From Nemertoderma westbladi (Eukaryota; Animalia; Xenacoelomorpha), in the NCBI GenBank assembly GCA_032718475.1, contig JAUCBJ010006329.1, positions 1 through 64,000 on the forward strand: DNA of 64,000 nt, in the 5' to 3' direction. Positions 37,801 through 64,000 of the stretch are shown piece by piece. How positions within the stretch are numbered: position 1 is the stretch's first letter; every line of letters starts with the position of its first letter. The position numbers were made by a program, and so were the translations under genes. Under the pieces are notes generated by a model. It made no database searches, was not told where the DNA came from, and saw only the letters and a program-made list of their open reading frames with translations.

Positions 37801-39498
37801 TTACCTGCTCCTTTGACTTTCATTTAAGATTCGCTATCTCGTGGAGTGGATTAGAAGTTATAAATATGAAAATCGATGTGGTTTTTGAAAAAAATCAGAG
37901 GATATTTTGATAAATTATTGCTGAAAAACCCCAAGCATTTTGACATGGCTTTAATACTTCATTATATTCATGAAATAGCTGAGATATTTGAGGTGAATTA
38001 TTGTATCACATATTAACTTCGGCTCCAGGCGCTTTGGCAATACGATGAAACTATAATATATATTCTAGAACACAACAATATTTACAGGGAGATAGGCTAC
38101 TTATCTCTTCACTCTGAGAGCCTCAAAAAGGGGGTGTTCCGATGCAATCAAAATTCTTCCATCTCCAGGGGAAAGACGAAGCAAATAACAGCTGATTACT
38201 TCTATAAATGTAAGTGTTACCAGTTCTTTTGACTTTCATTTAAGATTCTTTATCTTGTGGAGTGGGTTAGAAGTAATGAATAAGAAAATCGATTTCGTTT
38301 TTTGTAAAAAATCTGAGGATATTTTGATAAATTATTGCTGAAAAACCCCAACGATTTTGACATGGCTTTGATACTTCATTATTTTTCATGAAAATCTGAG
38401 ATATTTGAGGTGAATTATTGCATTACATAATAACTTTAACTGCAGCCACATTAGCAATACGATGAAACTATAATAAATCTTCTAGAACACAACCATATTA
38501 ACAGGGAGATAGGCTACTTATCTCTCCACTCTGAGAGCCTGAAAAAAGGGGGTGTTCCGACGCTATCAAAATTAATCCATCTCCTGGGGAAAGACGAAGC
38601 AAAGAACAGGTGATTACTTCTATAAATGAAAGTGTTACCTGCTCCTTTGACTTTCATTTAAGATTCTTTATCTTTTGGAGTGGGTTAGAAGTCATGAATA
38701 TGAAAAACGATATCATTTTTTGTAAAAAATCTGAGGATATTTTGATAAATTATTGGTGAAAAACCCCAAGGATTTTGACATGGCTTTAATACTTCATTAT
38801 GTTCATTAAAAAACTGAGATATTTGAGGTGAATTATTGCATTACATAATAACTTTAACTCCAGCCACTTTAGCAATACGATGAAACTATAATAAATATTG
38901 TAGAACACAACAATATTAACATGGAGAGGAGATAGGCTATTTATCTCTCCACTCAGACAGCCACAGATAGGGAGGGGTGTTTTGACACAATCAAAATTCA
39001 ACCATCTCCAGGGGAAAGACGAAGCAAATAACAGCTGATTACTTCTATAAAGGAAAGTGTTACCTGTTCTTATGACTTTCGTTTAAGATTCTCTATCTCA
39101 TGGAGTGGATTAGAAGTGATAAATATGAAAATCGATGTGGTTTTTGAAAAAAATCAGAGGATATTTTGATAAATTATTGCTGAAAAACCCCAAGGATTTT
39201 GACATGGCTTTATACTCATTATATTCATGAAATAGCTGAGATATTTGAGGTGAATTATTGCGTTACATATTAACTTTGGCTCCAGCCGCTTTGGCAATAC
39301 GATGAAACTATACTAAATATTCTAGAACACAACAATATTAACATGGAGATAGGCTATTTATCTCTCCACTCAGACAGCCACAGATAGGGAGGGGTGTTTT
39401 GACACAATCAAAATTCCACCATCTCCAGGGGAAAGACGAAGCAAATAACAGCTGATTACTTCTATAAAGGAAAGTGTTACCTGTTCTTATGACTTTCG
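19844..39498 (+). repeat. ~416-bp satellite, segment 3
   Basis: Continuous monomers, including a near-identical copy of 7120-15625 and a local ~2084-bp (5-monomer) tandem duplication. Confidence 0.97.
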
Positions 39499-40039
39499 TG
39501 TTAGCTTATTCAATCCCGCCAACACCCCATAAAGTTGTAAGCCGATAAGCAATATTGGGAGCCACGAGATTGGGCAATTAACCAACTCGTGCCATCCCAA
39601 TAAGAGTGGGAAGGAAGCACACAATAGAGGGTCAGGGGCCAAACCCCTAACCCAGAGGAAATAGGTGGAGTGAACGGGAATACTCCACGGGGCGCCAACA
39701 AGGGTATTAACCAATCAGAGGGGGGAAAGGCATCGATTGAGTAGCAGTAAGGCCACCGTGCAATATAACCAGTAACCTATTAATCAGTGATTCAGTTATC
39801 TCAGTGCAGCAGTGCTAGCGTAGGTTGGTAATCAATTAGTTTAGTTAGGGGATCACGGGACTTTAGTTACCGTATCCCGCCTTGTACACATTATATCTAT
39901 ATCTATATCTTATGCCCTATCATTATTATACACCGAACTTCAGAACTCAGACACTTTATTTCACCCTTATACACGGCGGGGACGCGTGGACTAAATTACC
40001 ACATCAGATAAATCGGGATCCCTCCTGGATCCCGTCACA
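39499..40039 (+). repeat. 5' LTR (541 bp)
   Basis: Starts TGTTAGC, ends GTCACA. Direct repeat of 53330-53870 with 3 substitutions seen by eye. Several TCAGT Inr-like motifs at ~39784-39805. Confidence 0.96.
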
Positions 40040-40119
40040 GTAACTAAATCCGAGCTGCCGCCCCAGTTAAACTCTGAGAACTACACTGCTAGCTAGTCGA
40101 ACTCCACCGAGCAGACGAG

Positions 40120-42594
40120 ATGAGTGAATCGGGCGAGACACCGCCGCGGACCCCGGATGAAGACCTAACGATCCGCGAGGCCGCGACCAAGCGATACAGG
40201 CCCACGACGCCGGAGCCATCGATAACGGGCGAACCGGAAGTCCAGAACGAGGAGGGCCTGGAACCCGAAGTCGAGCCAAGAGAGAAAGAGAGCGAGACGG
40301 AGGGAGAAGGAGACGAGTCGACACGAGACGGAGAACGGCGCGCCGATGTCGCCGGCCAGCTACCGGCCGAGGGCGACGAGCGGCCCACCGAAACGGCGAC
40401 GATGGGGCCGACGGTGCGACGCCGGACGCGAAGAGACGGAGGAGAGATCGGTACCGATGTCGCCGGCCAGCTACAGGCCGAGGGCGACGGACGGCCCACC
40501 GGAACGGCGACGGTGGAGCCGCCGGTACGACGTCGAACCCGGAGGGACGGAGGAGAGGTCGGCGACGAGGACGTCGGGGTTTCTGAGCGACTTCGACGGG
40601 CCTACAACGCGACCCGGAAGCTGATAAACGACGCCAAGAAGGAAGGGGCGAAGGTAGACGAGGTGAGACTGAGAAAGCGACTAGGTGAGTCGGATAGACA
40701 CTTAAGTTACCTAATACGTTTTGGGCAGAGAGAACTGGCCGGGGAGAGAGCAGAAGGGATAGCCGGCGAACTGTTTGAACTATGGGAGTGTGGGAGTATG
40801 GAACCTAGTATAGCGCCATTGTACATAGGGCCATACTTGGTCGATGCCCGGGGAGTAAAACCAGTGGGTTGGAGGGGACTCGAAGGGGGCGAATCCGAGG
40901 TTAACCCCGAGGATTCGGCCTCGTCGGTCGGAGAAAGCTCCGGGAGGCGGGGGAAAGTTAGTAGGTCGGGAAGGCGGGGGAAGTCCGTCGTAACCGATAA
41001 GTCTGTTACATCCTCCGCGAAAGAAAGAGTGGTGAGAGAGGTAGGTGCCGCATACCGTCTCGACGTGGCAGAGCAAGGTCAGAAGGAAATGGAGGAACGG
41101 CTAGAGGAGGGGAGAGCGCGGTTAGCGAGGGAAGCGGCATTGATTAAAGAGAACGGAGAGAGGCTCGAAAGGGCTTTGATGAGCCTTAGGGAGAGTGACG
41201 AAATAGAGGAAAAGGAGTGTAGAGAGCGTGAGGCTAGGGAGGAAAAGGAACGCAAAGAGCGTGAGGCGGAACGCAAGGAATATGAGGCGAGAAAGGAAAA
41301 GGAACGCAAAGAGCGTGAGGCGGAACGCAAGGAATATGAGGCGAGAAAGGAAAAGGAACGTAAGGAGCGTGAGGCGAGGCGAAGGGAGATCGCTAGGAGT
41401 GTGGTAGAGTCGGACAGACGGGACAGTCAGGAGAGTGAGAAGAGAGGGGCAAAGGCTGAGCAAGAGCTAAGGGATTTAGAGAAACGCCAAGGTGAATCGG
41501 CGAAAAATAAGATTAGACGGGCGCACGAACTGGAACTGGTCCGAGCGTTGCCGTCTGAAAGCGGGGCCGGCTCGAGTATTTTTGAGGAGCCAGGGGCCGT
41601 AGACACGTTTATTAATACCCCACTGACAGGGACCGCACGACAGACCCAAAACTGGTGTGACCGTACGGGCGGGGGGGGGGGTAATAATAATGATGGTACA
41701 GTAGACGTTGTTGATATTAATAGTACCGTATGGGATAACTCTAATCAAACCTTTATTGCAGGGAATACTTTACCTAGTGGTAGTAACTTAAATTTAAATC
41801 AGAACGTCCCTAGTATTAATGTAGAAAATAATCCTAATATTGATGTAGTTACGCAAAATAATTCAAATAATCAAAATAATAACCCGAATTCGGACCTACA
41901 AAATAACTTAAATAACGCAATTACACAAAATAATTCGAATAATTTAAATAATGATCTTAGCCCGAATTTACAAAATAATTCAGATAACGTAGTCGCGCAG
42001 AATAATACAAATGATTTTGTTTCAAACGAGCAAATTAATTCCGTTTCCAATATGGGTGCTATTAATGTAAATACGTCTGGCCTACATAACCAGGGAGCAG
42101 AGGGCCTGGTAGGCCACGTAGTTAGTAGACAGGAAGCAGAGGGCCTGGTAGGCCACGTAGTTAGTAGACAGGCAGCAGAGGGCCTGGTAGGCCACGTAGT
42201 TAGTAGACAGGCAGCAGAGGGCCTGGTAGGCCACGTAGTTAGTAGACAGGGAGCAGAGGGCCTGGTAGGCCACGTAGTTAGTAGACAGGCAGCAGAGGGC
42301 CTGGTAGGCCACGTAGTTAGTAGACAGGGAGGAGAGGGCCTGGTAGGCCACGTAGTTGGTAGGCAGGGAGTAGAGGGTCTGGTAGGCCACGCAATAGCAG
42401 AGGGAGAGGCGGGGGTGAATAGACCCGACCGTGGTAGGGTTGATGTGTCGACTAGAGAGATATATAGTAGCGGGGCGAGAGGTAGCGAAGTAGAATGTAG
42501 CGGGTGGGGGGGGGCTACAAGGGCCCCACAACAGAGAGTTAGCGGCGAGAGGGGGGGGGGGGGCAGAGAGTGTCCCACAGCCGTCAGCGGATAA
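40120..42594 (+). CDS. N-terminal part of the Gag(-Pol) polyprotein: low-complexity, coiled-coil, Asn-rich, with internal tandem repeats
   Basis: 824-aa ORF from an ATG 80 bp after the 5' LTR. E/R/K-rich helical region and N-rich tract. Overlaps the next ORF (open from 42543) across a G13 run, so it probably belongs to one polyprotein. Confidence 0.7.
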   Translation: MSESGETPPRTPDEDLTIREAATKRYRPTTPEPSITGEPEVQNEEGLEPEVEPREKESETEGEGDESTRDGERRADVAGQLPAEGDERPTETATMGPTVRRRTRRDGGEIGTDVAGQLQAEGDGRPTGTATVEPPVRRRTRRDGGEVGDEDVGVSERLRRAYNATRKLINDAKKEGAKVDEVRLRKRLGESDRHLSYLIRFGQRELAGERAEGIAGELFELWECGSMEPSIAPLYIGPYLVDARGVKPVGWRGLEGGESEVNPEDSASSVGESSGRRGKVSRSGRRGKSVVTDKSVTSSAKERVVREVGAAYRLDVAEQGQKEMEERLEEGRARLAREAALIKENGERLERALMSLRESDEIEEKECREREAREEKERKEREAERKEYEARKEKERKEREAERKEYEARKEKERKEREARRREIARSVVESDRRDSQESEKRGAKAEQELRDLEKRQGESAKNKIRRAHELELVRALPSESGAGSSIFEEPGAVDTFINTPLTGTARQTQNWCDRTGGGGGNNNDGTVDVVDINSTVWDNSNQTFIAGNTLPSGSNLNLNQNVPSINVENNPNIDVVTQNNSNNQNNNPNSDLQNNLNNAITQNNSNNLNNDLSPNLQNNSDNVVAQNNTNDFVSNEQINSVSNMGAINVNTSGLHNQGAEGLVGHVVSRQEAEGLVGHVVSRQAAEGLVGHVVSRQAAEGLVGHVVSRQGAEGLVGHVVSRQAAEGLVGHVVSRQGGEGLVGHVVGRQGVEGLVGHAIAEGEAGVNRPDRGRVDVSTREIYSSGARGSEVECSGWGGATRAPQQRVSGERGGGGRECPTAVSG
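42091..42390 (+). repeat. 39-bp coding minisatellite (13 aa, QxAEGLVGHVVSR), 7 full + 1 partial copy
   Basis: Unit CAGG(G/C)AGCAGAGGGCCTGGTAGGCCACGTAGTTAGTAGA read directly from the sequence. Confidence 0.95.
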
Positions 42595-45290
42595 TGCGAG
42601 GGCCGAACAAGGTAAACCGCAACAACCGGCGACGGAAAGTAATAGGGGGATTGCGAGTATCCCCAGCGACGTGCGACCGAGCAGAGAAAGACAGGTTGAC
42701 GTCGCGGAGAGGGCGGACGGAGCGTCGAGCCCGATCAGAGGAGGAAAGAAGAACAGTGGGGTTTAACCGGGAGGTCGACGAGAGATCTCGTGAGCGGGAA
42801 TATTCCACTGATAGGAGAAGAGAGGAAGACAGTAGTAGAAGTATCGCCGCAAACGATAGAAGAGCGAGGACGGACAGCGAGCCGTCGGTAGTCGAGATGA
42901 GAACGGAGAGTCAGTGGGGTCGGACTCCGGGAGATTGCCGTCGCCCCGGAGGGATGCGATCCGGTGAGGCGCATTACACGCCGAGAGAGGGGTACGCGAT
43001 GTACCGGTACGAGGATGAAAACAGTGGAGAGGGGGGTCGAAGAGAAACTTTCCGACGGAATATACCTACCGATCGAGAATACGGTAGCCGCGGGGAGGAT
43101 TATTCGAGAAGAATAAACTTCGATCCCGAGCAACACATGCAGACTGTAGGGCATACTGTAGGTCTTACTGCACATACCGTAGGCCATACTGAGAGAGGCA
43201 ATGTAGGCGATAGGATAGCGTGGACAACGGGATTAAACCCGGAAGTCGCGGAATACATACCGGCGAGTAGGCCAGAAGCTGATAGGCCTATACCGGTACC
43301 AGCACAGCAGTATGACTACAGCATGCAGGGACATAACATATACCCAGGGGAGGGGGGAATTATTGCGGATAGGTGCATGGGCCCCAACATATTAACATCA
43401 ACCCCAGTACCAGACATACCGGTGGGGGGGGGACAGGGTGACATTCCCCCATCACAATATCAACAATATACCCCAACAGGAACAAGAACAACGAGACCCC
43501 TAGATGAAAACAGGTCGTGTGATACAGACATATGGAGGGGGCCGCTACCCCCGATGACATATCCGAGTCAGAGAAGATCAAGAAATAGGACGGACGAACC
43601 GCACCAGACAGGGGAAACTATACAGCGCCCGTCGAATCCATTGGAAGCGCAGGCGATGGGGATGGCCACGTTGATCGATGCGTTGAAAACGAGGATCGAA
43701 TTACCACCCGTGGAACCATTCAAATTCGATGGGAGCAGGCCGGAAGAATACTTACAGTTTCGGCGAATGTATAGTAACGAAATACTAACAAAAAACTTGA
43801 CGCAGGCGGAGTGCCTAAAGTATCTACAAGTGTACACGGGAGGCCCAGCATACGACATCGTGAGGCAATATCAGGGAATAGAGGGCGGCTTCACGACAGC
43901 ATGGCGGGCACTGGATAGGGAATACGGGCACCCGGCCAAGATCATCAGGCAGACGCTGAGAGGCATAACATCGGGTGGCCTACAGGATAATCCCGTTAGC
44001 ATTAAGACGTTTGCTAACAAAGTCGAGAAGGCGCTGATCGTGCTGAAGACGCTAGACGCGCCATACGAGCTCAACGCGTCCAACAACATCACCACGATAG
44101 CGCAGGCACTACCGAGCTGGCTGCGCAACAAATGGAGGAAGATCGCTTTCTCCACTCGAGACAAGAAGGGTGCGGAACCAGGTTTAGAAGAAATGTCAAA
44201 CTTCTTAAATTACGAGGCTGAACTAATAACTGACCCAGTCTATAGCGAAGACAGCCTGGGAAAGGGACCAAAGACAGACTACCATAGACCAAAACCAGAG
44301 CACAACACATCGAACGCGTTACCGAGACTCAGGCAATCATTGCCATATGCAGCGACGCAGGGGACTGCAAGTCCACAGACAAACGAAGATAAGACAACAT
44401 CAAGGGACGGACAGGGGAACAATAACAACATGAATAAACATAACCCCAGTACGTCCAGTAGGCCAAACCCAGTCAATAAGAATAGTAGGGACTTTGGTAC
44501 GAATATAACTGCGATACGCAATGCATTGTATAAAGAGGGCTACGACCCAAAGAGCAAATGCCAGTTACACGCAAATGCGCTTCATAAAACCATGAACTGC
44601 AGGTACTGGCAGGCGCTACCGAGGCAAGACCAGATAGATTACGCGTCGAGCAATAAAATCTGCTCGCGATGTGTGAAGAGTGGACACAAGGCCAGGGAAT
44701 GCCAAGAGAAGCCGGTCAAGTTTGGCCAAAGGAGAGGCCAAACGATGGCAACGAGCACGGTAGGGGCGAAGAAGAGAGGTACGGTGTTACTTGGAGTAGT
44801 ACCAGTACGAGTGATCGGGGAAGGCAATCGATCAGTAACAACACTAATGCTGGTTGATAGTGGAGCTGCCTTCACATTAGTTGAGGAATGGGTAGCCGAA
44901 GAAATAGGGTTGAGAACGAGGCCAAGCAGAATGGCGGTAACAACCATCTCTAGCAAAGATGAGGTCCTAGAGATGAGGACAGGACGGTGCGCAATTGCAG
45001 CAGTGGCACCAGGATGCGATTATGGGGCAACCATCGACCCCATCCAAGTAATAGAGTCAATTAACATCAATGCCAGGCGGCCAACCAACATCGAGGTCGA
45101 GCAATACAAATTCCTGGACGACATTGACTTCTCGATCCCAGACGTGGACGTTAGGAAGGTATCCATCATAGTAGGAATGGACTGCCCGACGGCCCACGAG
45201 AAGAATGCAAACGGTCTTCGGCGAAGACAAGCAGAGCGACCCGGTGGCCATATTAACACCATTCGGGTGGACGCTGAGTGGTCCAATTAA
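42570..45290 (+). CDS. gag: BEL/Pao Gag core (DUF1759-like), zinc knuckles and aspartic protease; frameshifted fragment
   Basis: FKFDGSRPEEYLQF...AWRALDREYG capsid-like region; CQLHANALHKTMNC and CSRCVKSGHKAREC knuckles; protease MLVDSGA...IIVGMD. Homology moves to another frame near 45200. Confidence 0.88.
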   Translation: MSHSRQRIMRGPNKVNRNNRRRKVIGGLRVSPATCDRAEKDRLTSRRGRTERRARSEEERRTVGFNREVDERSREREYSTDRRREEDSSRSIAANDRRARTDSEPSVVEMRTESQWGRTPGDCRRPGGMRSGEAHYTPREGYAMYRYEDENSGEGGRRETFRRNIPTDREYGSRGEDYSRRINFDPEQHMQTVGHTVGLTAHTVGHTERGNVGDRIAWTTGLNPEVAEYIPASRPEADRPIPVPAQQYDYSMQGHNIYPGEGGIIADRCMGPNILTSTPVPDIPVGGGQGDIPPSQYQQYTPTGTRTTRPLDENRSCDTDIWRGPLPPMTYPSQRRSRNRTDEPHQTGETIQRPSNPLEAQAMGMATLIDALKTRIELPPVEPFKFDGSRPEEYLQFRRMYSNEILTKNLTQAECLKYLQVYTGGPAYDIVRQYQGIEGGFTTAWRALDREYGHPAKIIRQTLRGITSGGLQDNPVSIKTFANKVEKALIVLKTLDAPYELNASNNITTIAQALPSWLRNKWRKIAFSTRDKKGAEPGLEEMSNFLNYEAELITDPVYSEDSLGKGPKTDYHRPKPEHNTSNALPRLRQSLPYAATQGTASPQTNEDKTTSRDGQGNNNNMNKHNPSTSSRPNPVNKNSRDFGTNITAIRNALYKEGYDPKSKCQLHANALHKTMNCRYWQALPRQDQIDYASSNKICSRCVKSGHKARECQEKPVKFGQRRGQTMATSTVGAKKRGTVLLGVVPVRVIGEGNRSVTTLMLVDSGAAFTLVEEWVAEEIGLRTRPSRMAVTTISSKDEVLEMRTGRCAIAAVAPGCDYGATIDPIQVIESININARRPTNIEVEQYKFLDDIDFSIPDVDVRKVSIIVGMDCPTAHEKNANGLRRRQAERPGGHINTIRVDAEWSN

Positions 45291-45891
45291 GAGCAAGATA
45301 CCATTCAGGATGTCGGAGACATCAGGATGCATGTTCGCGGGAACAATGCAGGAAATGGGTGATGAGGGAGCAGAGGAGCAGCTTAAAAGACTGCTCAGAC
45401 AAGACTTTGAGGGACTGAAAGAGACCGGGGTCGGGACCTCGGTAGAAGACAAACAGGCTCTACAAAGCGTGGAGGAATCGATGACGTGTGATGAGGGGCG
45501 GTATACAATAGGAATGGTATGGAAACTACCGAAGATACCGCTACCCGATAATAGAGGGATGGTACTCACGAGACTCCGCAAGCTGAAACAAACACTACAA
45601 CGGAGCCCCGAGAAGAACGAGTACATTCACAAAACGATAAAGAAGTACGTCGAGAAAGGATGGGCCGTGGAGTTACCGGTCGACGAGCCGAACACGGACA
45701 GGACATACTACCTGCCACTCCACGTAGCTTTAGACCCAAAGAAAGGTAAACTTAGGATGGTAGTCGATGCATCGGCAAAGACCGACGGAAAGTGCTTAAA
45801 CGACTACCTACTAGAGGGCCCAAACATATACAATTCGGGCATAGAAGTACTACTTAGATTTCAGGAATGGGAAACACGCCTTCACGTGTGA
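45205..45891 (+). pseudogene. pol: Pol fragment: PR-RT linker and N-terminal RT, bounded by frameshifts
   Basis: PVAILTPFGWTLSGP, YYLPLH, KLRMVVDAS, LNDYLLEGPN, LLRF. The continuation HAFTCDIEGMFNQV lies in the next frame (shift at ~45870). Confidence 0.88.
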
Positions 45892-45901
45892 CATAGAAGG
45901 C

Positions 45902-48766
45902 ATGTTCAACCAAGTCCGAGTAACAGAGGAAGATAGCGACAGTCAACGCTTCTTATGGTATAACGGCGAAGAAGAACCGCCTATAATACCGGCATATAAG
46001 ATGGTAGTACAAAACATGGGGGCCAAGTCGTCCTCATTTACGACGACTATGGCAGTGAGAGACACGGTAAAGGGGAAGGAAGATAGATACAGCAGTAGGG
46101 CCGTCGATATGATCCGACGCGGCTTCTACGTAGACGACGGTATGGAGTCTGGAAATACGGTTGAGGAGATACTGGAAACAGGGCGCGAGGTTCGCGACAT
46201 CCTGAAAGGATCCGGCTTCAACCTGACCAAATTCCAATCCAGTTCAGAAGAATTTATCAAGGCAATAGAGGACAAGAAACCAGAATCGACCATGGACAAC
46301 CCTACAACAGCCAAAGGACAGGACATGGCGATTAAGAGAACGGAATCCCAGCAGAAGGCATTGGGAATCGTGTGGGATAGAAAAACAGACGAACTGAAGT
46401 ATCAGCTGAGCCAGGAGGGCGCAGACACCCATACGAAGAGGGGTTATGTATCGTATATAGCAAGGATATACGATCCCCTAGGCCTAGCATCCCCATTACT
46501 AGTCACGGGGAAACAGATACTCAAGAGAGTATATAAATTGAAGGATGAGTGGGATGTAGAGGTACCAGAGGACATCAAGAAACAGTGGAGCAAATGGACA
46601 GGAGACTTGGAGAGGATGGGAACATACAACATGCCGCGAGTGTATTTCCCGGACGGGAACATGACGAATCTGGACCTACATATGTTCTCCGACGCGTCGT
46701 TAGAGGCATACGGAGCGGCACTCTATTTAGTACAACGAGAGGGGCCTCACAAGCCCAGACTAGCCTTTAGCAAAGCTAAGTCAACGCCGCCAGATTCAGC
46801 ATCTGTTCCCAAGTTAGAATTGACAGCTGCGAGACTAGGAGTTAGAGCCACAGCCTACCTAGTGGATACAATTCCCAACATAGTGGAGACACACTACTGG
46901 ACGGACTCCATGGTAGTGCTTGGTTGGCTACACAACGAAAAGACGAGATACCCGATATTCGTCGCGAATAGAGTGGACGAAATAAGAGCAACCACAGAAC
47001 TAGAAAGGTGGCACTACTGCCCAACAGATGAGAACCCAGCGGACTTGCTGTCGAGGGGCGTGGAACGCCACACTTTCCTGAAGAAGGAAGTATTGTGGCA
47101 ACATGGGCCACAATTTCTGAGCGATAGAGAGGCCTGGCCGCCGATGAGGAAGGTGGACCCGGGCTCGGAAGTAGTATCAGAAGGAGAAGAGGGAGATTCA
47201 GAGGGAGAAGAGATATACTCCCAGATGGTGAGGGAGATTAGGGACGTGCAACCAGGAAGGGAACTGTGCGATAACCCGACGGATAAACTCCTCAGCTACA
47301 GTTCTAGTTGGTATAAGACCAAGAAACTAGTGGCGTACTGGAGAGCCTTTGGGAATTTCCTTGCGGGAGTCGGCAAGGACAAGAAGATCAGGACAACCAT
47401 AGATCTGGAAGGAGCGGCCAAGGCAGTGATCCGCTATGAACAACGGAAGAACTACGGCGACGAGGTGGAACGCGTCGGTAACCAACAGCACCTCCGACGG
47501 GACAGCGAGTTGATCACGCTGTCGCCACAACTCAATGACGACGGGATTCTAGTAATGAATTCTAGGGTGGGATACAACAACAGTATAGTCGTACCACCGA
47601 AACCCATCATCATTCCTACAGGATCGCCAATAGTCCACCAGATTATATGGGACTCCCATAAATCGATATTGCATGGGGGCACCAACCGAACCCTCACAGA
47701 GATAAGGAGGACCTTTTGGGTCAAACAACTAAGGAAGAAGGTTAAAGCGGTAGTGGGGCAGTGCCAGACCTGCCGACGGGCGAAGAAGGAGCGAGCCATA
47801 CAGGAGATGGCGCCACTACCGGCGAGTAGGGTAAGACAGCACGACCCGCCATTTACGCATTGCGGTGTGGACATGTTCGGGCCGATAAAGATCAAGGTGA
47901 TGCGACACACGGAGAAACGCTACGGTATTATCTTCGTATGCAACAATACGCGGGCGGTAGGGATAGAACTCGCCCAAGATGCAACCGCATCAGCATTCAT
48001 TAACGCCTTAGAAAGGTTTAGGGACCGCAAAGGTGGGACGATCGCAGTGATATATAGCGACAACGGCACCAACTTTGTGGGCGCAGAGAGTGAGATGGCA
48101 GAGGCCTTAGACATCTTGGAGGGAGAAGAAGTCAGGGCGGCCATGAGGAGACGACAAGTGAAGTGGGAGAGAAGGACGCCGTATGCACCACATACACTAG
48201 GATGCGTCGAGAGACTGGTGGGCAGTTCAAAACGTCTAATGACGAAGCTGATGAACACCCACATGGTCACTGAAGACGTCTTACGGACAGTACTTGCGAA
48301 GTGCGAGGGGATCATTAATAGCAGACCGCTATATCCAGAGAATGATGACCCTGAGTCATTAGACGTGCTAACACCTAGCCATTTCCTGATGGAAAGGCCA
48401 GCGACCATCGATATGCGGGGTGTAGACCCAGATGATATACACTCCCGCCAAAGTTGGAAAGTAGCTAAAGCAATTAGCGCAGAATACTGGAGGAGGTGGG
48501 TAGAGGAATACCTACCCACACTCCATAAGCGGAGCAAGTGGAGGAAGCCGAACAGGGAGTTAAGAGAGGGAGATCTCGTAATCGTCACGGATGATACTAT
48601 CATCAACAACCAGTGGCGGTTGGCGAGAGTTGTAGGCACCTACTCCGACGAGGACGGAAGAGTCCGATCGGTAGAAGTGCGGATAGGTGGAAAGATAGGT
48701 GCGAAGGACAGAAAAACCTACAGGAGAGCGGTAGGTAAATGCTGTCTTCTAGAAGGGGCACCTTAA
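45902..48766 (+). CDS. pol: Pol: RT core, RNase H (Pao peptidase A17-like domain), integrase
   Basis: RGFYVDD; HMFSDASLEAYGA; PKLEL; WTDS; HHCC (SHKSILHGG...CQTC); DDE (GVDMFGP, YSDNGTNF, VERLV); C-terminal W..W.EEYL..L..RSKW and GDLV...W.LARV. The ATG at 45902 is internal, not a true start. Confidence 0.93.
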   Translation: MFNQVRVTEEDSDSQRFLWYNGEEEPPIIPAYKMVVQNMGAKSSSFTTTMAVRDTVKGKEDRYSSRAVDMIRRGFYVDDGMESGNTVEEILETGREVRDILKGSGFNLTKFQSSSEEFIKAIEDKKPESTMDNPTTAKGQDMAIKRTESQQKALGIVWDRKTDELKYQLSQEGADTHTKRGYVSYIARIYDPLGLASPLLVTGKQILKRVYKLKDEWDVEVPEDIKKQWSKWTGDLERMGTYNMPRVYFPDGNMTNLDLHMFSDASLEAYGAALYLVQREGPHKPRLAFSKAKSTPPDSASVPKLELTAARLGVRATAYLVDTIPNIVETHYWTDSMVVLGWLHNEKTRYPIFVANRVDEIRATTELERWHYCPTDENPADLLSRGVERHTFLKKEVLWQHGPQFLSDREAWPPMRKVDPGSEVVSEGEEGDSEGEEIYSQMVREIRDVQPGRELCDNPTDKLLSYSSSWYKTKKLVAYWRAFGNFLAGVGKDKKIRTTIDLEGAAKAVIRYEQRKNYGDEVERVGNQQHLRRDSELITLSPQLNDDGILVMNSRVGYNNSIVVPPKPIIIPTGSPIVHQIIWDSHKSILHGGTNRTLTEIRRTFWVKQLRKKVKAVVGQCQTCRRAKKERAIQEMAPLPASRVRQHDPPFTHCGVDMFGPIKIKVMRHTEKRYGIIFVCNNTRAVGIELAQDATASAFINALERFRDRKGGTIAVIYSDNGTNFVGAESEMAEALDILEGEEVRAAMRRRQVKWERRTPYAPHTLGCVERLVGSSKRLMTKLMNTHMVTEDVLRTVLAKCEGIINSRPLYPENDDPESLDVLTPSHFLMERPATIDMRGVDPDDIHSRQSWKVAKAISAEYWRRWVEEYLPTLHKRSKWRKPNRELREGDLVIVTDDTIINNQWRLARVVGTYSDEDGRVRSVEVRIGGKIGAKDRKTYRRAVGKCCLLEGAP

Positions 48767-48885
48767 AGCGGAGTTAGAGTGAAGTTTAGTCGTCCAAGTT
48801 TTGGACTGAGGGGGGTGGGATTGAGGGCGAGACGCCCTTCCCACACAAATAAAAATAAAAATAAAATAAAAATAATAGTACATAG

Positions 48886-49580
48886 TAGGTACGTAGTACC
48901 TAGAGTTAGTTACTTAGTTAGTAGGTACGTAGTACCTAGAGTTAGTTAGAGAGTTAGTAGGCAGAAATTAGCTAAGAGGTACGTAGTACCTAGTTAGTTA
49001 GTTAGTTAATAGGTACGTAGTACCTAGTTAGAGTTAGAGAGTTAGTAGGTACGTAGTACCTAGAGTTAGTTAGTTAGTAGGTACGTAGTACCTAGAGTTA
49101 GTTAGTTAGTAGGTACGTAGTACCTAGTTAGAGTTAGAGAGTTAGTAGGTACGTAGTACCTAGAGTTAGGGAGTTAGTAGGTATGTAGTACCTAGAGTAG
49201 AGAGTTAGTAGGTACGTAGTACCTAGAGTTAGTTAGAGAGTTAGTAGGTACGTAGTACCTAGAGTTAGAGAGTTAGTAGGTACGTAGTACCTAGAGTTAG
49301 TTAGAGAGTTAGTAGGTACGTAGTACCTAGAGTTAGTTAGAGAGTTAGTAGGTACGTAGTACCTAGAGTTAGTTAGAGAGTTAGTAGGTACGTAGTACCT
49401 AGTTAGAGTTAGAGTTAGAGGGTACGTAGTACTGCTAGTTAGAGTTAGAGTTAGAGGGTACGTAGTACCGCTAGTTAGAGTTAGAGTTAGAGGGTACGTA
49501 GTACCGCTAGTTAGAGTTAGAGTTAGAAGGTACGTAGTACCGTTAGTTAGAGTTAGAGGGTACGTAGTACCATTAGTTAG
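48886..49580 (+). repeat. Array of 20 palindromic units (T)AGGTAC-GTA-GTACCT(A) with variable AGTT/AGAGTT spacers, period mostly 30-36 bp
   Basis: Cores counted at about 48886, 48922, 48977, 49010, 49046, 49078, 49110, 49146, 49178, 49209, 49245, 49277, 49313, 49349, 49385, 49421, 49457, 49493, 49529, 49559. Confidence 0.93.
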
Positions 49581-50087
49581 AAGAAGAGAGAGTAAGAGGT
49601 AAAAGGGGGTAAATAGGATATAGATATTAATTAGCAGTAAGTAGAGTTAGTAGCGAGAGGGGGGCATATGAGTACAGCTGGATAAATCGTGTGGCCACAC
49701 GACGCATACTGCTGTACTGCATAGGCCCACTGAGTAGGCCAGAATATGGATCAGAGAGAGAATAGAATAAATCCATAGGCAGTAGTAAGTAGTAGGACAG
49801 TAGAATCAAAGCAAAATAAACAAATAAATAGAATAGGGCTGAAAGTTAGGAAATAGTGGCAACACAAGCGAAATCGTTCTAGAACATAATAAAAGTAACG
49901 GACAGAAATTGTAAATTAGGCTGATTTACTAGCTCTGAAATTAATTAGGTAAAATTAAGCTTGAAAGGCGCAATTAAGTAGAAAGTAGGCCATTGTCGAA
50001 CTGTACGAAACATCTTAAATACTTCACTCATCTGTATTGCGCCTTGGTAAGGCACCACCCTACAGGTGAGCGAGTGTAGTGTTCGGA

Positions 50088-52622
50088 ATGGCGAGTAAGC
50101 TGATCAGGAAGAGAAAGGCGGAGTCAGGAGGAAAAGAAATATTGGTGGATTTCACCGAAAGACACCCGGAAGAGAAGACGAGAGGATACTACGAGAGGTT
50201 GGAAAGGGGTCACGCGGCACGAGCGCTGCAGGATCACTTCCGGGAGGCGCACGAACAGCGGTTGGTCGGGACCTACGGGACCCCGTCACTAGACAACGCG
50301 ATCTTCCAACACTTCCACTACGTGGTGAAAGGGGACGAGGCGAAGTTCGGGATTCCGAAGTATCCGAGGGAATCGCCGAGGAAGGACTGGAAAAGATTCA
50401 TAGAGTCCGTCAACAGAGGAGGATATATGATCCTAGATGACGAGGGAACCGTGGAGGACGAAGCGGGTTCAAGGCGAGGAACGGCAGGGTCGGCCAGGAC
50501 CATACTCCTACATTTGGCCGCGCCGAATGGGGACATCTTCTTATTCGATCTAGGGACGTATGGGAAGAAGGACGGGCCGAAATTAGACCGATTGCCGAAA
50601 GCGGTACAAGTCTTAGTAAGAGAGAAGTCGACGACGAAAGTGGGATCGGCGATTCGCGAGGATGCGGAGAGGATCATCGGTCCGGACGCCACCAACCTCC
50701 TGGACATGCAGAAAGTCTTTATGGCTATGACGGCACCGGATGGATTGGGGGTGGTCGAGAACACAGGCCAATGCGGGGCGGTGGCGATGGGCCAATTATT
50801 GGGGCTCGTATGCCACAAACCGATGGATTGGGGGAAGTTTAGGGAAGAATACGGAGCAGAACTAGCGAACTCGCTGAAGTGGGGAGCGAGACCGGGAAAG
50901 CAGGAGGTATATCAGTTTCGCAGAGGAGCGATAAAGGTATATCAGAAGCGATATATCCTGCAGGAGGACTGGATGATGATAAGTTTGCTTAACTTATTCA
51001 TGACCGTAGTTATCGAAAGGGAACCAGGGGCATTTCTGTTATCGGGATCACCCCTAAGCTACAGGAGAGCCTTTAAGACGGCCTTTGACGGTCTGGTAGA
51101 CCACCCGGGGCTGAAGGGCGAGTCGGTGTACTACAACAGCCGACATCTGGTAGACGGGGAGACAGATACACCGTATCAGAGATGGGAGCAGCTAGAGGCG
51201 GACAGACGAGAAGCAAAGCGACTGGAAGAAGTCGCTAGACGGGAGAGGATAGAAGCAGAGGAGAGGGAAGAGGAGGCCAGGGCACAGAGTTACGGCTTCG
51301 AGGAACAGGCGGGCCTAGACGAGCTTCATTGGACTTCGTCAGGGAGTTCGGGGGAGTCTCTAGGACGAGAATTGGGATGGACGGTGGGATCGCCGAAACA
51401 GTCGACGTCGGGGTTGCAAACGATGCCCATACCAGCGGGCGCCGAGGGCGACCAACCGCCAAGGAAGTTAAGGGAGCTAGAGGGATGGAGAGCTACGGGC
51501 GAGAGCCAAGGCGGAAAGGGACATAGTGGATCCATCGGGATACCGGGATTGGAGACACTACCGGAAGAGGAGGACGACGACGACGAGTTCGGAGAGATGC
51601 CGCCCATCGAAAGGATAGGCCACTCGGACACAGACTGGGTTGGCGGAAGGGTGGTGACGGCCAGTGGGGCGAGGGCCTTCTGGAACAGATCCGGCAAGCG
51701 GACCTGGGTGCACGAGGAGCCGGCGATGGATTTCGCGGGGAGCACCATCAGGTTGGGCGAGCAACCGGGGACGGCACCACGGATAGTATTCGGGGAGACG
51801 ATGCCCGAGAGGGGCGGAGAGATCGACGTAAACAGGGAGAGCAACGTGGAGAAGTTCGCCTACCAGCGACTCCATAGACCGCGGAGATCGCTTGGGACGA
51901 AGGACGAGGTGGGACGGGAGACATTGGTACTCGGCTGCGACTACTGTGGGAGACAGACCCATCAGGAAAGCAGCTGCCTATACCGGTTCCAACGGGGAAC
52001 CTTTTGTCTCTACTGTAGAGAACCAAGTCACAGGATGGGGGCGTGTCCACGGTTGCATAACCGATGTCCAAAGTGCCACTTTCGGGGGCACTACGGACGC
52101 GAGTGCGACTGGATGAGCGACGAGGAGAAGTTCACGAGGTTCGAGGAATGGGCCGACGTCGGGGCCATGACGCGCCAGCGCATGAAGGCCCAAGAGTTCA
52201 AGTGGGGTTTCTTCCTCATAAACCAGGAGACCCACATGGAAATCATAAAGCGAAGGTTACCGTTTACCTATCAAGAGGTAGCTACGGCGGCATCGTTCGC
52301 TGGAGTTATGAACACGCAACGGTACCTGGACAGGTGGACACCAGAGAACCGGAGGGAGTTTAGGGATTTCTTGGCGGAACACGTACCAAAGGCAATGAAA
52401 ATGATCCTATGGGACGCCACTCGAGGGAAACAACCAGGCCATTCTGAGGGGCCACCGGCGAAGCGGTATCGGGCTTTAATAACACCAGCGCCCAAGGAGC
52501 CGACGACCGGGATCAGCAAGGAAGTGGCAGCGAAGGTCCGGAAACAGAAAGCGGATGATGCCAGAGGAGCGGTGATAACCAAGAAACGGGCCAGGGAAGA
52601 GGATGTGAGGAGGTACAGATAA
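50088..52622 (+). CDS. Additional retrotransposon ORF: putative DEDDy 3'-5' exonuclease (WRN/Mut-7/EXD-like) plus 3 CCHC zinc knuckles
   Basis: First ATG at 50088 in good Kozak context (GGAATGG); uninterrupted ~845 codons. Motifs in order: ILDDEG (ExoI), LLHLA..GDIFLFDL, LP..V..L....TKVGSAIREDAERI (ExoII), NLLDM, LLG...K, YQKRYILQED (ExoIII-like). Knuckles CDYCGRQTHQESSC, CLYCREPSHRMGAC, CPKCHFRGHYGREC. Confidence 0.78.
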   Translation: MASKLIRKRKAESGGKEILVDFTERHPEEKTRGYYERLERGHAARALQDHFREAHEQRLVGTYGTPSLDNAIFQHFHYVVKGDEAKFGIPKYPRESPRKDWKRFIESVNRGGYMILDDEGTVEDEAGSRRGTAGSARTILLHLAAPNGDIFLFDLGTYGKKDGPKLDRLPKAVQVLVREKSTTKVGSAIREDAERIIGPDATNLLDMQKVFMAMTAPDGLGVVENTGQCGAVAMGQLLGLVCHKPMDWGKFREEYGAELANSLKWGARPGKQEVYQFRRGAIKVYQKRYILQEDWMMISLLNLFMTVVIEREPGAFLLSGSPLSYRRAFKTAFDGLVDHPGLKGESVYYNSRHLVDGETDTPYQRWEQLEADRREAKRLEEVARRERIEAEEREEEARAQSYGFEEQAGLDELHWTSSGSSGESLGRELGWTVGSPKQSTSGLQTMPIPAGAEGDQPPRKLRELEGWRATGESQGGKGHSGSIGIPGLETLPEEEDDDDEFGEMPPIERIGHSDTDWVGGRVVTASGARAFWNRSGKRTWVHEEPAMDFAGSTIRLGEQPGTAPRIVFGETMPERGGEIDVNRESNVEKFAYQRLHRPRRSLGTKDEVGRETLVLGCDYCGRQTHQESSCLYRFQRGTFCLYCREPSHRMGACPRLHNRCPKCHFRGHYGRECDWMSDEEKFTRFEEWADVGAMTRQRMKAQEFKWGFFLINQETHMEIIKRRLPFTYQEVATAASFAGVMNTQRYLDRWTPENRREFRDFLAEHVPKAMKMILWDATRGKQPGHSEGPPAKRYRALITPAPKEPTTGISKEVAAKVRKQKADDARGAVITKKRAREEDVRRYR

Positions 52623-53291: not shown

Positions 53292-53329
53292 ATGCTATCT
53301 TCTTACCGGGAAGATAGCATGGGGGGGAG
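53292..53329 (+). promoter_or_regulatory. Hairpin plus polypurine tract before the 3' LTR
   Basis: ATGCTATCTTC-ttaccgg-GAAGATAGCAT (11-bp perfect stem), then GGGGGGGAG abutting the LTR TG. Confidence 0.85.
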
Positions 53330-53870
53330 TGTTAGCTTATTCAATCCCGCCAACACCCCATAAAGTTGTAAGCCGATAAGCAATATTGGGAGCCACGAGA
53401 TTGGGCAATTAACCAACTCGTGCCATCCCAATAAGAGTGGGAAGGAAGCACACAATAGAGGGTCAGGGGCCAAACCCCCAACCCAGAGGAAATAGGTGGA
53501 GTGAACGGGAATACTCCACGGGGCGCCAACAAGGGTATTAACCAATCAGAGGGGGGAAAGGCATCGATTGAGTAGCAGTAAGGCCACCGTGCAATATAAC
53601 CAGTAACCTATTAATCAGTGATTCAGTTATCTCAGTGCAGCAGTGCTAGCGTAGGTTGGTAATCAATTAGTTTAGTTAGGGGATCACGGGACTTTAGTTA
53701 CCGTATCCCGCCTTGAACACATTATATCTATATCTATATCTTATGCCCTATCATTATTATACACCGAACTTCAGAACTCAGACACTTTATTTCACCCTTA
53801 TACACGGCGGGGACGCGTGGACTAAATTACCACATCGGATAAATCGGGATCCCTCCTGGATCCCGTCACA
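53330..53870 (+). repeat. 3' LTR (541 bp)
   Basis: Direct repeat of 39499-40039, followed by the TSD TTTCG. Confidence 0.96.
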
Positions 53871-56800
53871 TTTCGTTTAAGATTCTCTATCTCGTGGAGT
53901 GGATTAGAAGTGATAAATATGAAAATCGATGTGGTTTTTGAAAAAAATCAGAGGATATTTTGATAAATTATTGCTGAAAAACCCCAAGGATTTTGACATG
54001 GCTTTAATACTCATTATATTCATGAAATAGCTGAGATATTTGAGGTGAATTATTGCATTACATATTAACTTTGGCTCCAGCCGCTTTGGCAATACGATGA
54101 AACTATAATAAAAATTCTAGACCACAACAATATTAACAGGGAGATAGGCTACTTATCTCTTCATTCTGAGAGCCTCAAAAAGGGGGTGTTCTGACGCAAT
54201 CAAAATTCATCCATCTCCTGGGGAAAGACGAAGCAAATAACAGCTGATTACTTCTATAAAGGAAAGTGTTACCTGTTCTTATGACTTTCGTTTAAGATTC
54301 TCTATCTCGTGGAGTGGATTAGAAGTGATAAATATGAAAATCGATGTGGTTTTTGAAAAAAATCAGAGGATATTTTGATATTTTATTGCTGAAAAACCCC
54401 AAGGATTTTGACATGGCTTTAATACTCATTATATTCATGAAATAGCTGAGATATTTGAGGTGAATTATTGCATTACATATTAACTTTGGCTCCAGCCGCT
54501 TTGGCAATACGATGAAACTATAATAAATATTCTAGAACACAACAATATTAACAGGGAGATTGGCTACTTATCTCTCCACTCTGAGAGCCTCAAAAAGGGG
54601 GTGTTCCGACGCAATCAAATTTCATCCATCTCCAGGGGAAAGACGAAGCAAAGAATAGCTGATTTCTTCTATAAATGAAAGTGTTACCTGCTCTTTTGAC
54701 TTTCATTTAAGATTCGCTATCTCATGGAGTGGGTTAGAAGTTATAAATATAAAAATTGATGTGGTTTTTAAAAAAATCAAAGGATATTTTGATAAATTAT
54801 TGCTGAAAAACCCCAAGGATTTTGACAGGGCTTTAATACTTCATTATGTTCATGAAATAGCTGAGATATTTGAGGTGAATTATTGCGTTACATATTAACT
54901 TTGGCTCCAGCCGCTTTGGCAATACGATGAAACTATACTAAATATTCTAGAACACAACAATATTAACATGGAGATAGGCTATTTATCTCTCCACTCAGAC
55001 AGCCACAGATAGGGATGGGTGTTTTGACACAATCAAAATTCATCCATATCCAGGGGAAAGACGAAGCAAATAACAGCTGATTACTTCTATAAATGTAAGT
55101 GTTACCAGTTCTTTTGACTTTCATTTAAGATTCTTTATTTTGTGGAGTGGGTTAGAAGTCATGAATAAGAAAACCGATTTCGTTTTTTGTAAAAAATCTG
55201 AGGATATTTTGATAAATTATTGCTGAAAAACCCCAAGGATTTTGACATGGCTTTAATACTTCATTATGTTCATGAAAAAACTGAGATATTTGAGGTGAAT
55301 TAATGCATTACATAATAACTTTAACTCCAGCCACTTTAGCAATACGATGAAACTATAATAAATATTCTAGAACACAACAATATTAACATGGAGATAGGCT
55401 ATTTATCTCTCCACTCAGACAGCCACAGATAGGGAGGGGTGTTTTGACACAATCAAAATTCAAACATCTCCAGGGGAAGACAAAGCAATTAATATCTGAT
55501 AACTTCTATAAATGTAAGTGTTACCTGTTCTTTAGACTTTCGTTTAAGATTGTCGAACTCTTGGATTGGGTTAGAAGTCATGAATATGATAATCGATGTC
55601 GTTTTTAGTAAAAAATCAGAGGAGATTTTAATAAATTATTGCTGAAAAACACCAAGGATTTTGACAAGGATTTAATACTCATTATATTCATGAAATAGCA
55701 GAGATATTTGAGGTGAATTATTGCATTACATATTAACTTTGGCTCCAGCCGCTTTGGCAATACGATGAAACTATAATAAATATTCTAGAACACAACAATA
55801 TTAACAGGGAGATAGGCTACTCATCTCTTCACTCTGACAGCCTCAAAAAGGGGGTGTTCCGACGCAATCAAAATTAATCCATCTCCAGGGGAAAGACGAA
55901 GCAAAGAATAGCTGATTACTTCTATAAATGTAAGTGTTACCTGTTCTTTAGACTTTCGTTTAAGATTGTCGATCTCTTGGATTGGGTTAGAAGTCATGAA
56001 TATGATAATCGATGTCGTTTTTAGTAAAAAATCAGAGGAGATTTTTATAAATTATTGCTGAAAAACACCAAGGATTTTGACAAGGATTTAATACTCATTA
56101 TATTCATGAAATAGCAGAGATATTTGAGGTGAATTATTGCATTACATATTAACTTTGGCTCCAGCCGCTTTGGCAATACGATGAAACTATAATAAATATT
56201 CTAGAACACAACAATATTAACAGGGAGATAGGCTACTCATCTCTTCACTCTGACAGCCTCAAAAAGAGGGTGTTCCGACGCAATCAAAATTAATCCATCT
56301 CCAGGGGAAAGACGAAGCAAAGAACAGCTGATTACTTCTATAAATGTAAGTGTTACCTGTTCTTTTGACTTTCATTTAAGATTCGCTATCTCATTGAGTG
56401 GGTTAGAAGTTATAAATATAAAAATCGATGTGGTTTTTGAAAAAAATCAAAGGATATTTTGATTAATTATTGCTGAAAAACACCAAGGATTTTGACATGG
56501 CTTTAATACTCATTATGTTCATGAAATAGCTGAGATATTTGAGGTGAATTATTGTATTACATATTAACTTTGGCTCCAGCCGCTTTGGCAATACGATGAA
56601 ACTATAATAAAAATTCTAGACCACAACAATATTAACAGGGAGATATGCTACTTATCTCTTCATTCTGAGAGCCTCAAAAAGGGGGTGTTCCGACGCAATC
56701 AAAATTCATCCATATCCTGGGGAAAGACGAAGCAAATAACAGCTGATTACTTCTATAAATGAAAGTGTTACCTGCTCCTTTGACTTTCATTTAAGATTCT

Positions 56801-56923
56801 TTATCTTTTGCAGTGGGTTAGAAGTCATGATTATGAAAAACGATGTCGTTTTTTTGTAAAAAATCTGAGGAGATTTTGATAAATTATTGCAGAAAAACCC
56901 CAAGGATTATGACATGGCTTTAA
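53871..56923 (+). repeat. ~416-bp satellite, segment 4
   Basis: Resumes in register after the TSD (TTTCGTTTAAGATTCTC). Confidence 0.96.
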
Positions 56924-58475
56924 CCCTATTAAACCCGGGGGGGGGGTCAATATGACCCCTCCCGTGGTTTTTTTATTATAATTCTGAAACAAACGCAGTT
57001 GGGAATCTGAAATTTTATGACTTTTCCTAAAAATCTATTGTCTTCCTAGTAGTGAAAACCGTTTTCAAAAATATTGGGTACTTTTCGAGTTATAGCGCCA
57101 TTTTTTAACCCTACTTTTGGCACTTTTTTTGAGACGTTTTTTGAAAATTACATTTCATTAAATATGAATTGTAACATCTCTATTTTTTATTTACACGGTT
57201 TTTTTGGAGTTAGAAATTTGATGGAATTCATATAAATTGATTTAGAAATTTGAAACTTGTTTTTTTCGGTGGGTGCCAAATTTTGGTGCCAGCACCAAAT
57301 TTTGAAATAAGTCAATTTTGTAAATTGATCGATTGAAACTTGTTTTTTACGCAATTGGGGTTTTTTGGGTTTCTGGATTCGAAGAAATATATACGAGTTG
57401 CACCAAGCGTATCAAACTTGTATTTTTCGGTGCTGTGTGCAAATTTTGGTGCTAGCACGAAATTTTGAAAATCCATTCAATAGATAAAATTGCTTGTGAG
57501 AATTTATTTCTTGCGTTTTAGAGGTTAATGGCTGTTCTGAATTCAATGGAAAATATAATTATCGAACTAGACATCTCAAACTTGTATTTTTCGGATGTGG
57601 GTGCAAAATGTGGTGCTAGCACCAAATTTTGAAAACCATCAAATATATCAATTGATTGTGTCACCTTGTTTCTTGCGTTATACGGGTTTGTGATGGTTCT
57701 GAATTCAATAGAATCAGTAAAAATTTCATAAGAGTTGTCAAACTTGTATTTTTCGCCGGTGGGTGAAAATTGTTGTGCCAGCACCAAATTTTGGAAAATA
57801 TGCAAATTGATAAGTAGATAGTATCACCTTGTTTCTTTCGTTATACGGGTTTATGAGGGTCCTGAATCCGATGGAATCAATAAAAACTGCCCTGGACATC
57901 GCAAACTTGTACTTTTTGGTGATGGGTACGAAATTTGGTGCTAGCACCAAAATTTCCCAAATTACGCCGAAAAATACAAGTAGCAATGATCTAGCATATT
58001 AGAAATGTATTCCATTAGAATCAGCGCCCTCGAAAACCTGAAAATGTGAATTTATAGCATCGTATAAGTGAATTAAAAATTTTGAGTTCTAACTGAAAAG
58101 TGCTGGTTACTTGTTTTTTTCATTTTTTTCCTACGCAGAGAGGACTAAACAGCCATTTATAGTAATCATATCATTTTTTAATATTTTCCAATGTATTTTA
58201 CACCCCAGAAAACCTGTATTGAAAAATAATTAGCCGAAAATGTAACTTTCAAATTTGGTGAAAATTGTGCACTACTTGTAATTTTGGTGCTGCAATATAA
58301 CCACCCCAGTACATTTTTTCGAAAATTTTTTTTTCGGTCGGATCCAGACAAGTGATACCTACGTACAAACAAAAAATCAGACGTTTTCGTAAATATTTGT
58401 AGATTTTAGAGGGGGGGGTCAATATGACCCCCTCCCGGTATTTGTACAACATTTTATAACCCGGTACTAATAGGG
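56924..58475 (-). mobile_element. piggyBac-like MITE family 2, copy B (inverted relative to A), 1552 bp
   Basis: TTAA at 56920-56923 and 58476-58479. Reverse complement of 18289-19843 with scattered substitutions. Empty paralogous site at 6661-6664. Confidence 0.93.
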
Positions 58476-63981: not shown

Positions 63982-64000
63982 TTAAGATTCTCTATCTCGT

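Follow-up and report, generated by a model that had tools for sequence, protein, structure and literature searches.

The ORF3 gene and its host element

Through computational analysis of a 64,000-nucleotide window of Nemertoderma westbladi DNA (contig JAUCBJ010006329.1, positions 1 to 64,000; the window means this whole stretch), an additional gene, here called open reading frame 3 (ORF3), has been identified in a BEL/Pao retrotransposon. ORF3 is located between the end of pol and the polypurine tract with the adjoining 3' long terminal repeat (LTR) (Table 1), the place where env would be expected, and it belongs to a real and conserved family of accessory genes in BEL/Pao elements that has apparently not been described before. 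Extra genes in LTR elements are usually taken for env.

In silico analysis of ORF3 revealed the features that a sequence-only reading of the window had named: (i) an uninterrupted frame, 844 residues long where about 845 had been given; (ii) the motifs LDDEG (50433), LHLA (50508), IFLFDL (50535), KVG (50637), IRED (50652), NLLDM (50694) and QKRYILQED (50943), in this order; (iii) three strict CX2CX4HX4C knuckles at 51936-51977, 52005-52046 and 52065-52106; (iv) the absence of a signal peptide and of a transmembrane anchor, the features of an env glycoprotein, because the maximum 19-residue hydropathy is only 1.3. The conserved C-terminal unit exceeds the knuckles and continues into a helical FExxADxGxxT...WGFF segment. 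Splice-site-like words are found at 50055-50075, just 5' of the ORF3 start, and the gene may be translated from a spliced message. The words AATAAA and ATTAAA were not found inside the LTR.

The assignment of the host element to BEL/Pao holds, as LTRs, target-site duplication, polypurine tract and a Pao-type domain set are all present. The order gag, protease, reverse transcriptase (RT), RNase H and integrase, with DUF1759, Peptidase_A17 and DUF5641, is the BEL/Pao domain set; Peptidase_A17 is an RNase H (PMC6681497). The ORF3-bearing insert is a single young insertion, because its TG...CA LTRs are nearly identical (3 of 541 bases differ), a 5-bp duplication (TTTCG) flanks it on both sides and a polypurine tract precedes the 3' LTR.

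Table 1. Coordinates of ORF3, its domains and the other features of the element
Feature	Position	Strand	Remark
Target-site duplication, left copy (5 bp, TTTCG), in 416-bp satellite monomer	39494..39498	+	
5' LTR, 541 bp, TG...CA	39499..40039	+	3 differences from the 3' LTR
Primer-binding position, not beginning with the TGG of tRNA-type sites; possibly self-priming (complementary to LTR 39858-39870)	40040..40052	+	
ORF1: gag-side N-terminal frame, charged, low-complexity, 39-bp repeats	40120..42594	+	no significant Pfam match
gag (DUF1759, weak knuckle) and aspartic protease frame	42543..45290	+	Pfam
pol N-terminal part (ahead of RT core), own frame in this copy	45175..45891	+	
pol: RT (YVDD at 46127), Pao RNase H (Peptidase_A17), integrase, DUF5641	45845..48766	+	
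About 19.5 copies of a 36-bp palindrome-bearing unit, pol-ORF3 spacer	48883..49571	+	
ORF3, 844-residue accessory gene	50088..52622	+	uninterrupted frame
Predicted DEDDy-type 3'-5' exonuclease domain, residues ~68-350	50289..51137	+	
Charged helix (residues 362-411), then disordered acidic linker (to residue ~610)	51165..51917	+	
Conserved zinc module: three CCHC knuckles (51936-52106) and helical FExxADxGxxT...WGFF segment	51936..52427	+	
Polypurine tract	53321..53329	+	
3' LTR	53330..53870	+	
Target-site duplication, right copy (TTTCG)	53871..53875	+	

Predicted exonuclease domain

For the window ORF3, Pfam gave no match, word-based searches found no homologue, whether started from the protein or from an alignment, phmmer against PDB returned weak knuckle matches only, and a pattern scan of IMG/VR yielded 0 matches. 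The nuclease domain has been identified by profile and structure comparison. When the window protein is aligned with 37 long homologues, D117 (50436), E119 (50442), D192 (50661) and Y289 (50952) are conserved columns. The profile of this alignment matches EXD2 in PDB (E 3.3e-10), and also Egalitarian, WRN, Mut-7 and trypanosome RNase D; with a profile of the nuclease alone, built from 24 rows, EXD2 is matched at E 1.2e-13 over the ExoI-ExoII half. Residues D117 and E119 (ExoI D-x-E) and D192 (ExoII) align with the EXD2/WRN motif columns. The ExoIII motif reads Y289-x3-E293 (E293 at 50964); its spacing, first taken for atypical, is canonical, and the oddity is Glu293 in place of Asp, common to five other homologues.

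The structure of ORF3 was modelled by AlphaFold with the homologue alignment, the single-sequence model being unusable (predicted local distance difference test, pLDDT, 32). The model is confident in both domains and disordered between them (pLDDT <50 for residues 412-610). Foldseek matched it with TbRND, Egalitarian, Nibbler, EXD2, EXD1 and Rrp6, the top rows all being RNA-binding or RNA-trimming proteins, and a BFVD structure search matched viral 3'-5' exonucleases. VIA-align gave Nibbler (Z 14.5, root-mean-square deviation 3.5 over 207 residues), WRN (Z 13.3) and RNase D (Z 13.2). In the ESM Atlas, 25 of 30 matches of residues 60-350 belong to clusters with PF01612 as the shared family; the best cluster (score 0.94) has PF01612 in 34% of its members.

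The predicted structure displays the RNase H-like alpha/beta exonuclease fold. Profile and structure searches had been proposed as the test of a DnaQ-like DEDDy fold as in WRN, EXD, Mut-7 and RNase D; both support it, and of the refuting outcomes named with the proposal, the lack of such a fold and the absence or neutral decay of the ORF in related copies did not come true. The likeness to Nibbler stands for the fold, whereas the nearest solved sequence is EXD2. On the basis of the model, the exonuclease fold is settled and the subfamily is not.

Homologue family and zinc module

A phmmer search of 1.84 billion representative proteins revealed 76 relatives of ORF3, with the zinc module as the best stretch in 75 of them. 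In 72 of the 76 relatives, knuckles 2 and 3 are nearly invariant, as is the helical segment behind them. Because the relatives were matched through the zinc module, the N-terminal domain came along unselected: a nuclease domain lies 5' of the zinc module in 36 of the 76, which is 36 of the 42 with at least 440 residues, a count that is not independent, since the profile was built from the same rows. The linker between the two domains measures 30-439 residues in the relatives and about 260 here. The ESM Atlas search with the zinc module (best score 0.86) provides leads only, and none of the 20 relatives looked up bears a functional name.

Variants of the architecture also occur. In loci L047 (3341-6529), L059 (6880-9648) and L061 (2-2425) the zinc module lies in mid-protein with no nuclease-domain match. 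Relative P0001 contains the zinc module twice, and relative P0047 combines it with a C-terminal homeodomain (Pfam E 1.8e-5) and has no nuclease domain.

Linkage of ORF3 to BEL/Pao elements

A degenerate DNA pattern for knuckles 2-3 was used to search metagenomes, giving at least 120 loci, 80 of them with flanks; two of the 120 listed (L014 and L071) have no zinc-module match and are chance matches. Among the matches listed, pol is located upstream on the same strand in 30 of the 34 loci with at least 4 kb of upstream sequence (the exceptions being L005, L012, L022 and L071), the nuclease domain is present in 45 of the 48 with at least 2.5 kb, and Peptidase_A17 or DUF5641 in 38 of 40 upstream pol stretches; of the other two, one is a short piece with no Pfam match and one has rve only. 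LTR-like repeats enclose ORF3 in L013, L022 and L023, and six further contigs close into ORF3-containing circles. In L022 (~5187-10931) the repeats surround ORF3 and short frames with no pol, and this locus is possibly a non-autonomous derivative that retained ORF3.

The ORF3 and pol trees of 21 loci and the window have 15 of 19 splits in common, with a distance correlation of 0.94 (p 0.0001), and the window pol is only 26-31% identical to the pols of those loci. The upstream position of pol and the common splits indicate that, as far as sequence comparison reaches, ORF3 is an accessory gene of old standing that has been passed on vertically in a wide range of BEL/Pao elements. The view of a one-off capture gives way to that of a family trait, present in dozens of distant relatives.

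Trees were also used to ask whether the window element may have acquired its ORF3 from a different lineage. In the tree of RT and RNase H the window pol stands among other BEL/Pao proteins, which may or may not bear ORF3 themselves, and a single group of ORF3 bearers is not rejected by the approximately unbiased test (p 0.63). The unrooted tree of full pol splits all ORF3 bearers from other BEL/Pao (support 97), with the window pol as a long branch.

Selection and loss of catalytic residues

Sister copies were obtained by aligning contig pieces of four public sequencing runs to the element. The two best DNA runs provided 7850 and 4453 pieces of 80-100% identity, so many diverged copies exist. 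Among the best-supported 40 of 566 differences, 36 lie inside ORF3, and 30 of these 36 are silent, where 29% would be expected; the best 12 of 35 indels all lie outside ORF3. Within 50400-51000, 35 of the best 40 of 123 differences are silent (29% expected), no indel is listed at 1%, and none of these 40 alters a catalytic residue, one of them being a silent change in the D192 codon. Both lists cover the best-supported sites only, and they overlap. The comparison of sister copies, suggested earlier as a check, indicates purifying selection, with mostly silent changes and no listed frameshift in ORF3. Between homologues, the ratio of non-synonymous to synonymous change (dN/dS) of the nuclease region is 0.04-0.17 in 12 non-identical pairs of at least 79% identity (0.11-0.17 in 8 intact pairs, one partner being incomplete, and 0.04-0.17 in 4 altered pairs); in distant pairs, near saturation, it reaches 0.86.

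From 93 aligned nuclease domains, 11 incomplete ones were dropped, leaving 82 scorable rows, a few of them duplicates. The catalytic acids are D-E-D-D, with the strict ExoIII Asp beside the other three, in 36 rows, D-E-D-E in 6 (the window included) and altered in 40. The altered rows form several separate groups, the largest being a clade of 21 rows (support 100). The tree requires 10 changes of catalytic state, a number to be read with its weak deep branches, since the starred branches force only one. The profile of the 21-row clade alone found no match in PDB; compared with the profile of the mostly intact set it is clearly homologous (probability 99.7). This clade, dead by its residues, is maintained by selection, next to gag-pol frames that are long and open.

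Judged from these alignments, catalysis is optional in the ORF3 family. As the altered homologues are still constrained, RNA binding would outweigh cutting, and a role in which binding alone suffices fits better. Obligatory trimming of a primer or of complementary DNA (cDNA) fits badly, because the acids are lost in thriving lineages. Among the roles proposed in the sequence-only reading, such trimming is thus disfavoured, about half of the homologues lacking catalytic residues, and anti-silencing is one that we still infer.

Priming site and spacer array

The first bases after the 5' LTR pair with an LTR-internal stretch, and the pairing ends exactly at the LTR boundary (40040-40095 with 39813-39870). 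The exact 9-mer occurred in 45 of 20000 shuffles and the duplex energy was reached in 34 of 2000; the fold of the whole region has a z of only -1.5. This suggests Tf1-like self-priming in the family of the window element, unlike the tRNA-type primer-binding site (PBS) of its relatives, which has been identified in 26 of 80 related loci (among the matches listed), both with intact ORF3 (L006, L013, L074 and L076) and with dead ORF3 (L031, L033 and L060). ORF3 as the maker of a self-primer for the whole family is rejected, intact and dead relatives alike having a tRNA-type PBS.

The 36-bp array in the spacer between pol and ORF3 possesses a palindromic core and folds strongly (z -4.2). It was considered as a conserved target of ORF3, which is not supported, as nothing like it is present in the spacers of 38 relatives.

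Comparison with known systems

DEDDy ORF3s have been described in the LTR elements Juno1/2 and Vesta2/5 of bdelloid rotifers and in Athena/Terminons (PMC5408684), the Terminon case being repeated in PMC6431247, and the rotifer precedent invoked for the window gene is thereby confirmed. Like the ORF3 analysed here, they are DEDDy-type frames behind pol and inside the LTRs, without transmembrane segments, and their function is untested too. Compared by description only, they differ in belonging to the Juno/Vesta lineages (no BEL/Pao among the four), in the motif DEED and in that no triple-knuckle module is described in the excerpt. According to their description, the rotifer genes are recent and patchy and have been exchanged among types of element; the BEL/Pao ORF3, in contrast, co-diverges with pol. 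Nuclease cargo in LTR elements is thus not confined to rotifers.

The trypanosome RNase D TbRND (PDB 7C42/7C45; PMC7797062) is the top Foldseek match and, like ORF3, has a DEDD exonuclease followed by CCHC knuckles; the family profile matches both of its domains weakly (E 0.027 and 0.005 per domain). In contrast to ORF3, it is a cellular mitochondrial enzyme with four fingers and a 28-residue linker, while in ORF3 the linker measures about 260 residues and leads to a larger helical module that contains three knuckles. The four fingers, short linker and more than 80% similarity of the trypanosomatid ZFD-RNase D are absent from ORF3 (identity 14-16%), and the common architecture is likely convergent. 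Trypanosome RNase D is a cellular precedent for the combination of nuclease and knuckles, overlooked in the sequence-only reading.

EXD2 (PDB 6K17; PMC6648332), the nearest solved sequence (E 1.2e-13), has the same fold. It differs by an N-terminal membrane anchor, which ORF3 lacks, a swapped dimer and the absence of knuckles; ORF3 differs by a family-specific insertion between ExoII and ExoIII. An extra frame is also present in env-bearing BEL/Pao elements, such as roo and mosquito elements with a chuvirus-like glycoprotein (PMC13524379), but their products are membrane fusogens, whereas ORF3 has no hydrophobic anchor. The Dada DNA transposons of Laccaria and Ectocarpus (PMC3706591) likewise encode a DEDDy exonuclease; it is part of a DDE transposase, with a proposed role in DNA-end processing, and no separate retroelement gene.

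No literature report of a DEDDy ORF3 in BEL/Pao was found, in a search outside whose scope Repbase, subscription journals and supplements may hold an annotation. The excerpt of the BEL/Pao survey PMC3118150 contains no word beginning with 'nuclease', and that of the main text of the env survey PMC13524379 neither 'exonuclease' nor 'DEDD'.

Possible function of ORF3

The reading that we favour, tentatively and at somewhat less than an even chance, is that ORF3 acts as an RNA-binding counter-defence factor, in which the predicted EXD2-like nuclease and the triple-knuckle module protect the RNA of the element against small-RNA silencing by the host or against decay. The zinc module would grip single-stranded RNA, as the TbRND knuckles do, and would hand its 3' end to the pocket of the DEDDy nuclease. 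The version in the window, with all four acids, would likely trim the bound 3' end, and a disabled version would do no more than bind this end and block it. Candidate targets are guides or precursors of PIWI-interacting RNAs (piRNAs) and small interfering RNAs, or decay tags on the RNA of the element itself. TbRND knuckles increase RNA binding and cleavage (PMC7797062), and the catalytically dead DEDD relatives EXD1 and Maelstrom work in piRNA biology (PMC5408684).

A more specific proposal, which we regard as doubtful, is that ORF3 of an old, widespread animal BEL/Pao branch is a piRNA/small-RNA antagonist, in which a nuclease of the type that hosts employ for small-RNA trimming is coupled to an RNA-gripping zinc module, with active trimmers in some lineages and dead decoys elsewhere. 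If true, this would make ORF3 a suppressor of piRNA silencing encoded by a transposon, an undescribed class according to the excerpt of a 2019 review, which knew of no transposon-encoded factor against the piRNA pathway (PMC6719617). A transposon-encoded counter to small-RNA silencing in animals has long been sought, and ORF3 is a concrete candidate for it; with active-looking and dead versions that occur naturally, the question can be addressed in vitro.

Several points weigh against a counter-defence role. Mature piRNAs have a 2'-O-methyl end that resists trimming. Counter-defence genes often evolve adaptively, and the ratios obtained here, pairwise and domain-wide, are all below 1. Glu293 in place of Asp may render even this copy weak or dead, and the apparent primacy of the zinc module is partly a search artefact, as both searches selected on it. 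The fold does not fix RNA as the substrate, because EXD2 and WRN cut DNA too, EXD2 cutting RNA as well (PMC6648332). A broad block of the piRNA pathway has been argued to be self-defeating or costly for a transposon (PMC6719617). Finally, the loss of catalysis fits an adaptor for packaging or transport equally well.

Such a non-catalytic adaptor would be an additional protein of nucleocapsid type, serving to package or chaperone the element RNA or to route it, for example to the oocyte, and its nuclease fold would provide a surface for RNA binding, as in Egalitarian. Structures of Egalitarian with BicD are among the fold matches, one with I-factor retrotransposon RNA bound; the zinc-only loci L047, L059 and L061 and the near invariance of knuckles 2 and 3 in 72 relatives point the same way. 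We consider this role unlikely: the conservation of the zinc module is partly the search artefact mentioned above, and all four acids are kept in 42 of 82 rows across very deep divergence (~20% identity), which requires that catalysis or metal binding be under selection in the lineages concerned.

A helper of replication is improbable to a similar degree. It would trim the primer or the 3' end of the RNA, or remove mismatched or untemplated bases from the cDNA end, like the proofreading exonucleases (ExoN) of arena- and coronaviruses; here a primer derived from the element could be shortened as far as the LTR/leader duplex. Ends of structured RNA and of single-stranded DNA are trimmed by DEDDy enzymes (PMC5408684), viral ExoN removes 3' mismatches (bioRxiv 541698), and this copy has no tRNA-type PBS, its LTR-leader pairing stopping exactly at the LTR boundary. 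However, a tRNA-type PBS accompanies intact and dead ORF3s alike in the 26 of 80 related loci listed, the 21-row dead clade is under selection beside long gag-pol frames, and the excerpt of the survey PMC3118150 gives usual BEL/Pao elements gag and pol only. Even if ORF3 served in packaging or proofreading, it would be a new component of the BEL/Pao life cycle.

That ORF3 is a passively riding captured host gene, or a chance frame with motif-like words, is highly improbable, despite the lack of a Pfam match, the weak knuckle-only phmmer matches and the rotifer ORF3s that show no departure from neutrality within a genome (PMC5408684): it is ruled out by the strong silent-site excess without a listed frameshift, by the place after pol, conserved in dozens of families, and by the co-divergence with pol.

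Other features of the element and the window

The gag-pol region of this copy extends over four frames despite the near-identical LTRs, whereas in many relatives it is one frame of 2100-2400 codons; the breaks may be mutations, programmed shifts or assembly errors. ORF1 contains internal repeats of 39 bp and longer. Compared with proteins that bear no lineage names, the pol is at most 35% identical to any match and lies on a long branch; any assignment to one of the sub-lineages BEL, Pao, Sinbad, Suzu, Tas, Dan and Flow would be tentative.

The window consists of an array of a ~416-bp satellite and one 14.4-kb insert richer in GC, the element described above. The array occupies 1-39498 and 53871-64000 and is built of AT-rich monomers of 416-417 bp that resemble one another at about 85-99%; some variants are shorter. 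The satellite also contains three non-coding inserts (~16074-17164, 18289-19844 and 56923-58478); they have TTAA flanks and CCCT...AGGG ends, by which they look like non-autonomous piggyBac elements; those at 18289-19844 and 56923-58478 are 97% identical and lie in opposite orientation.

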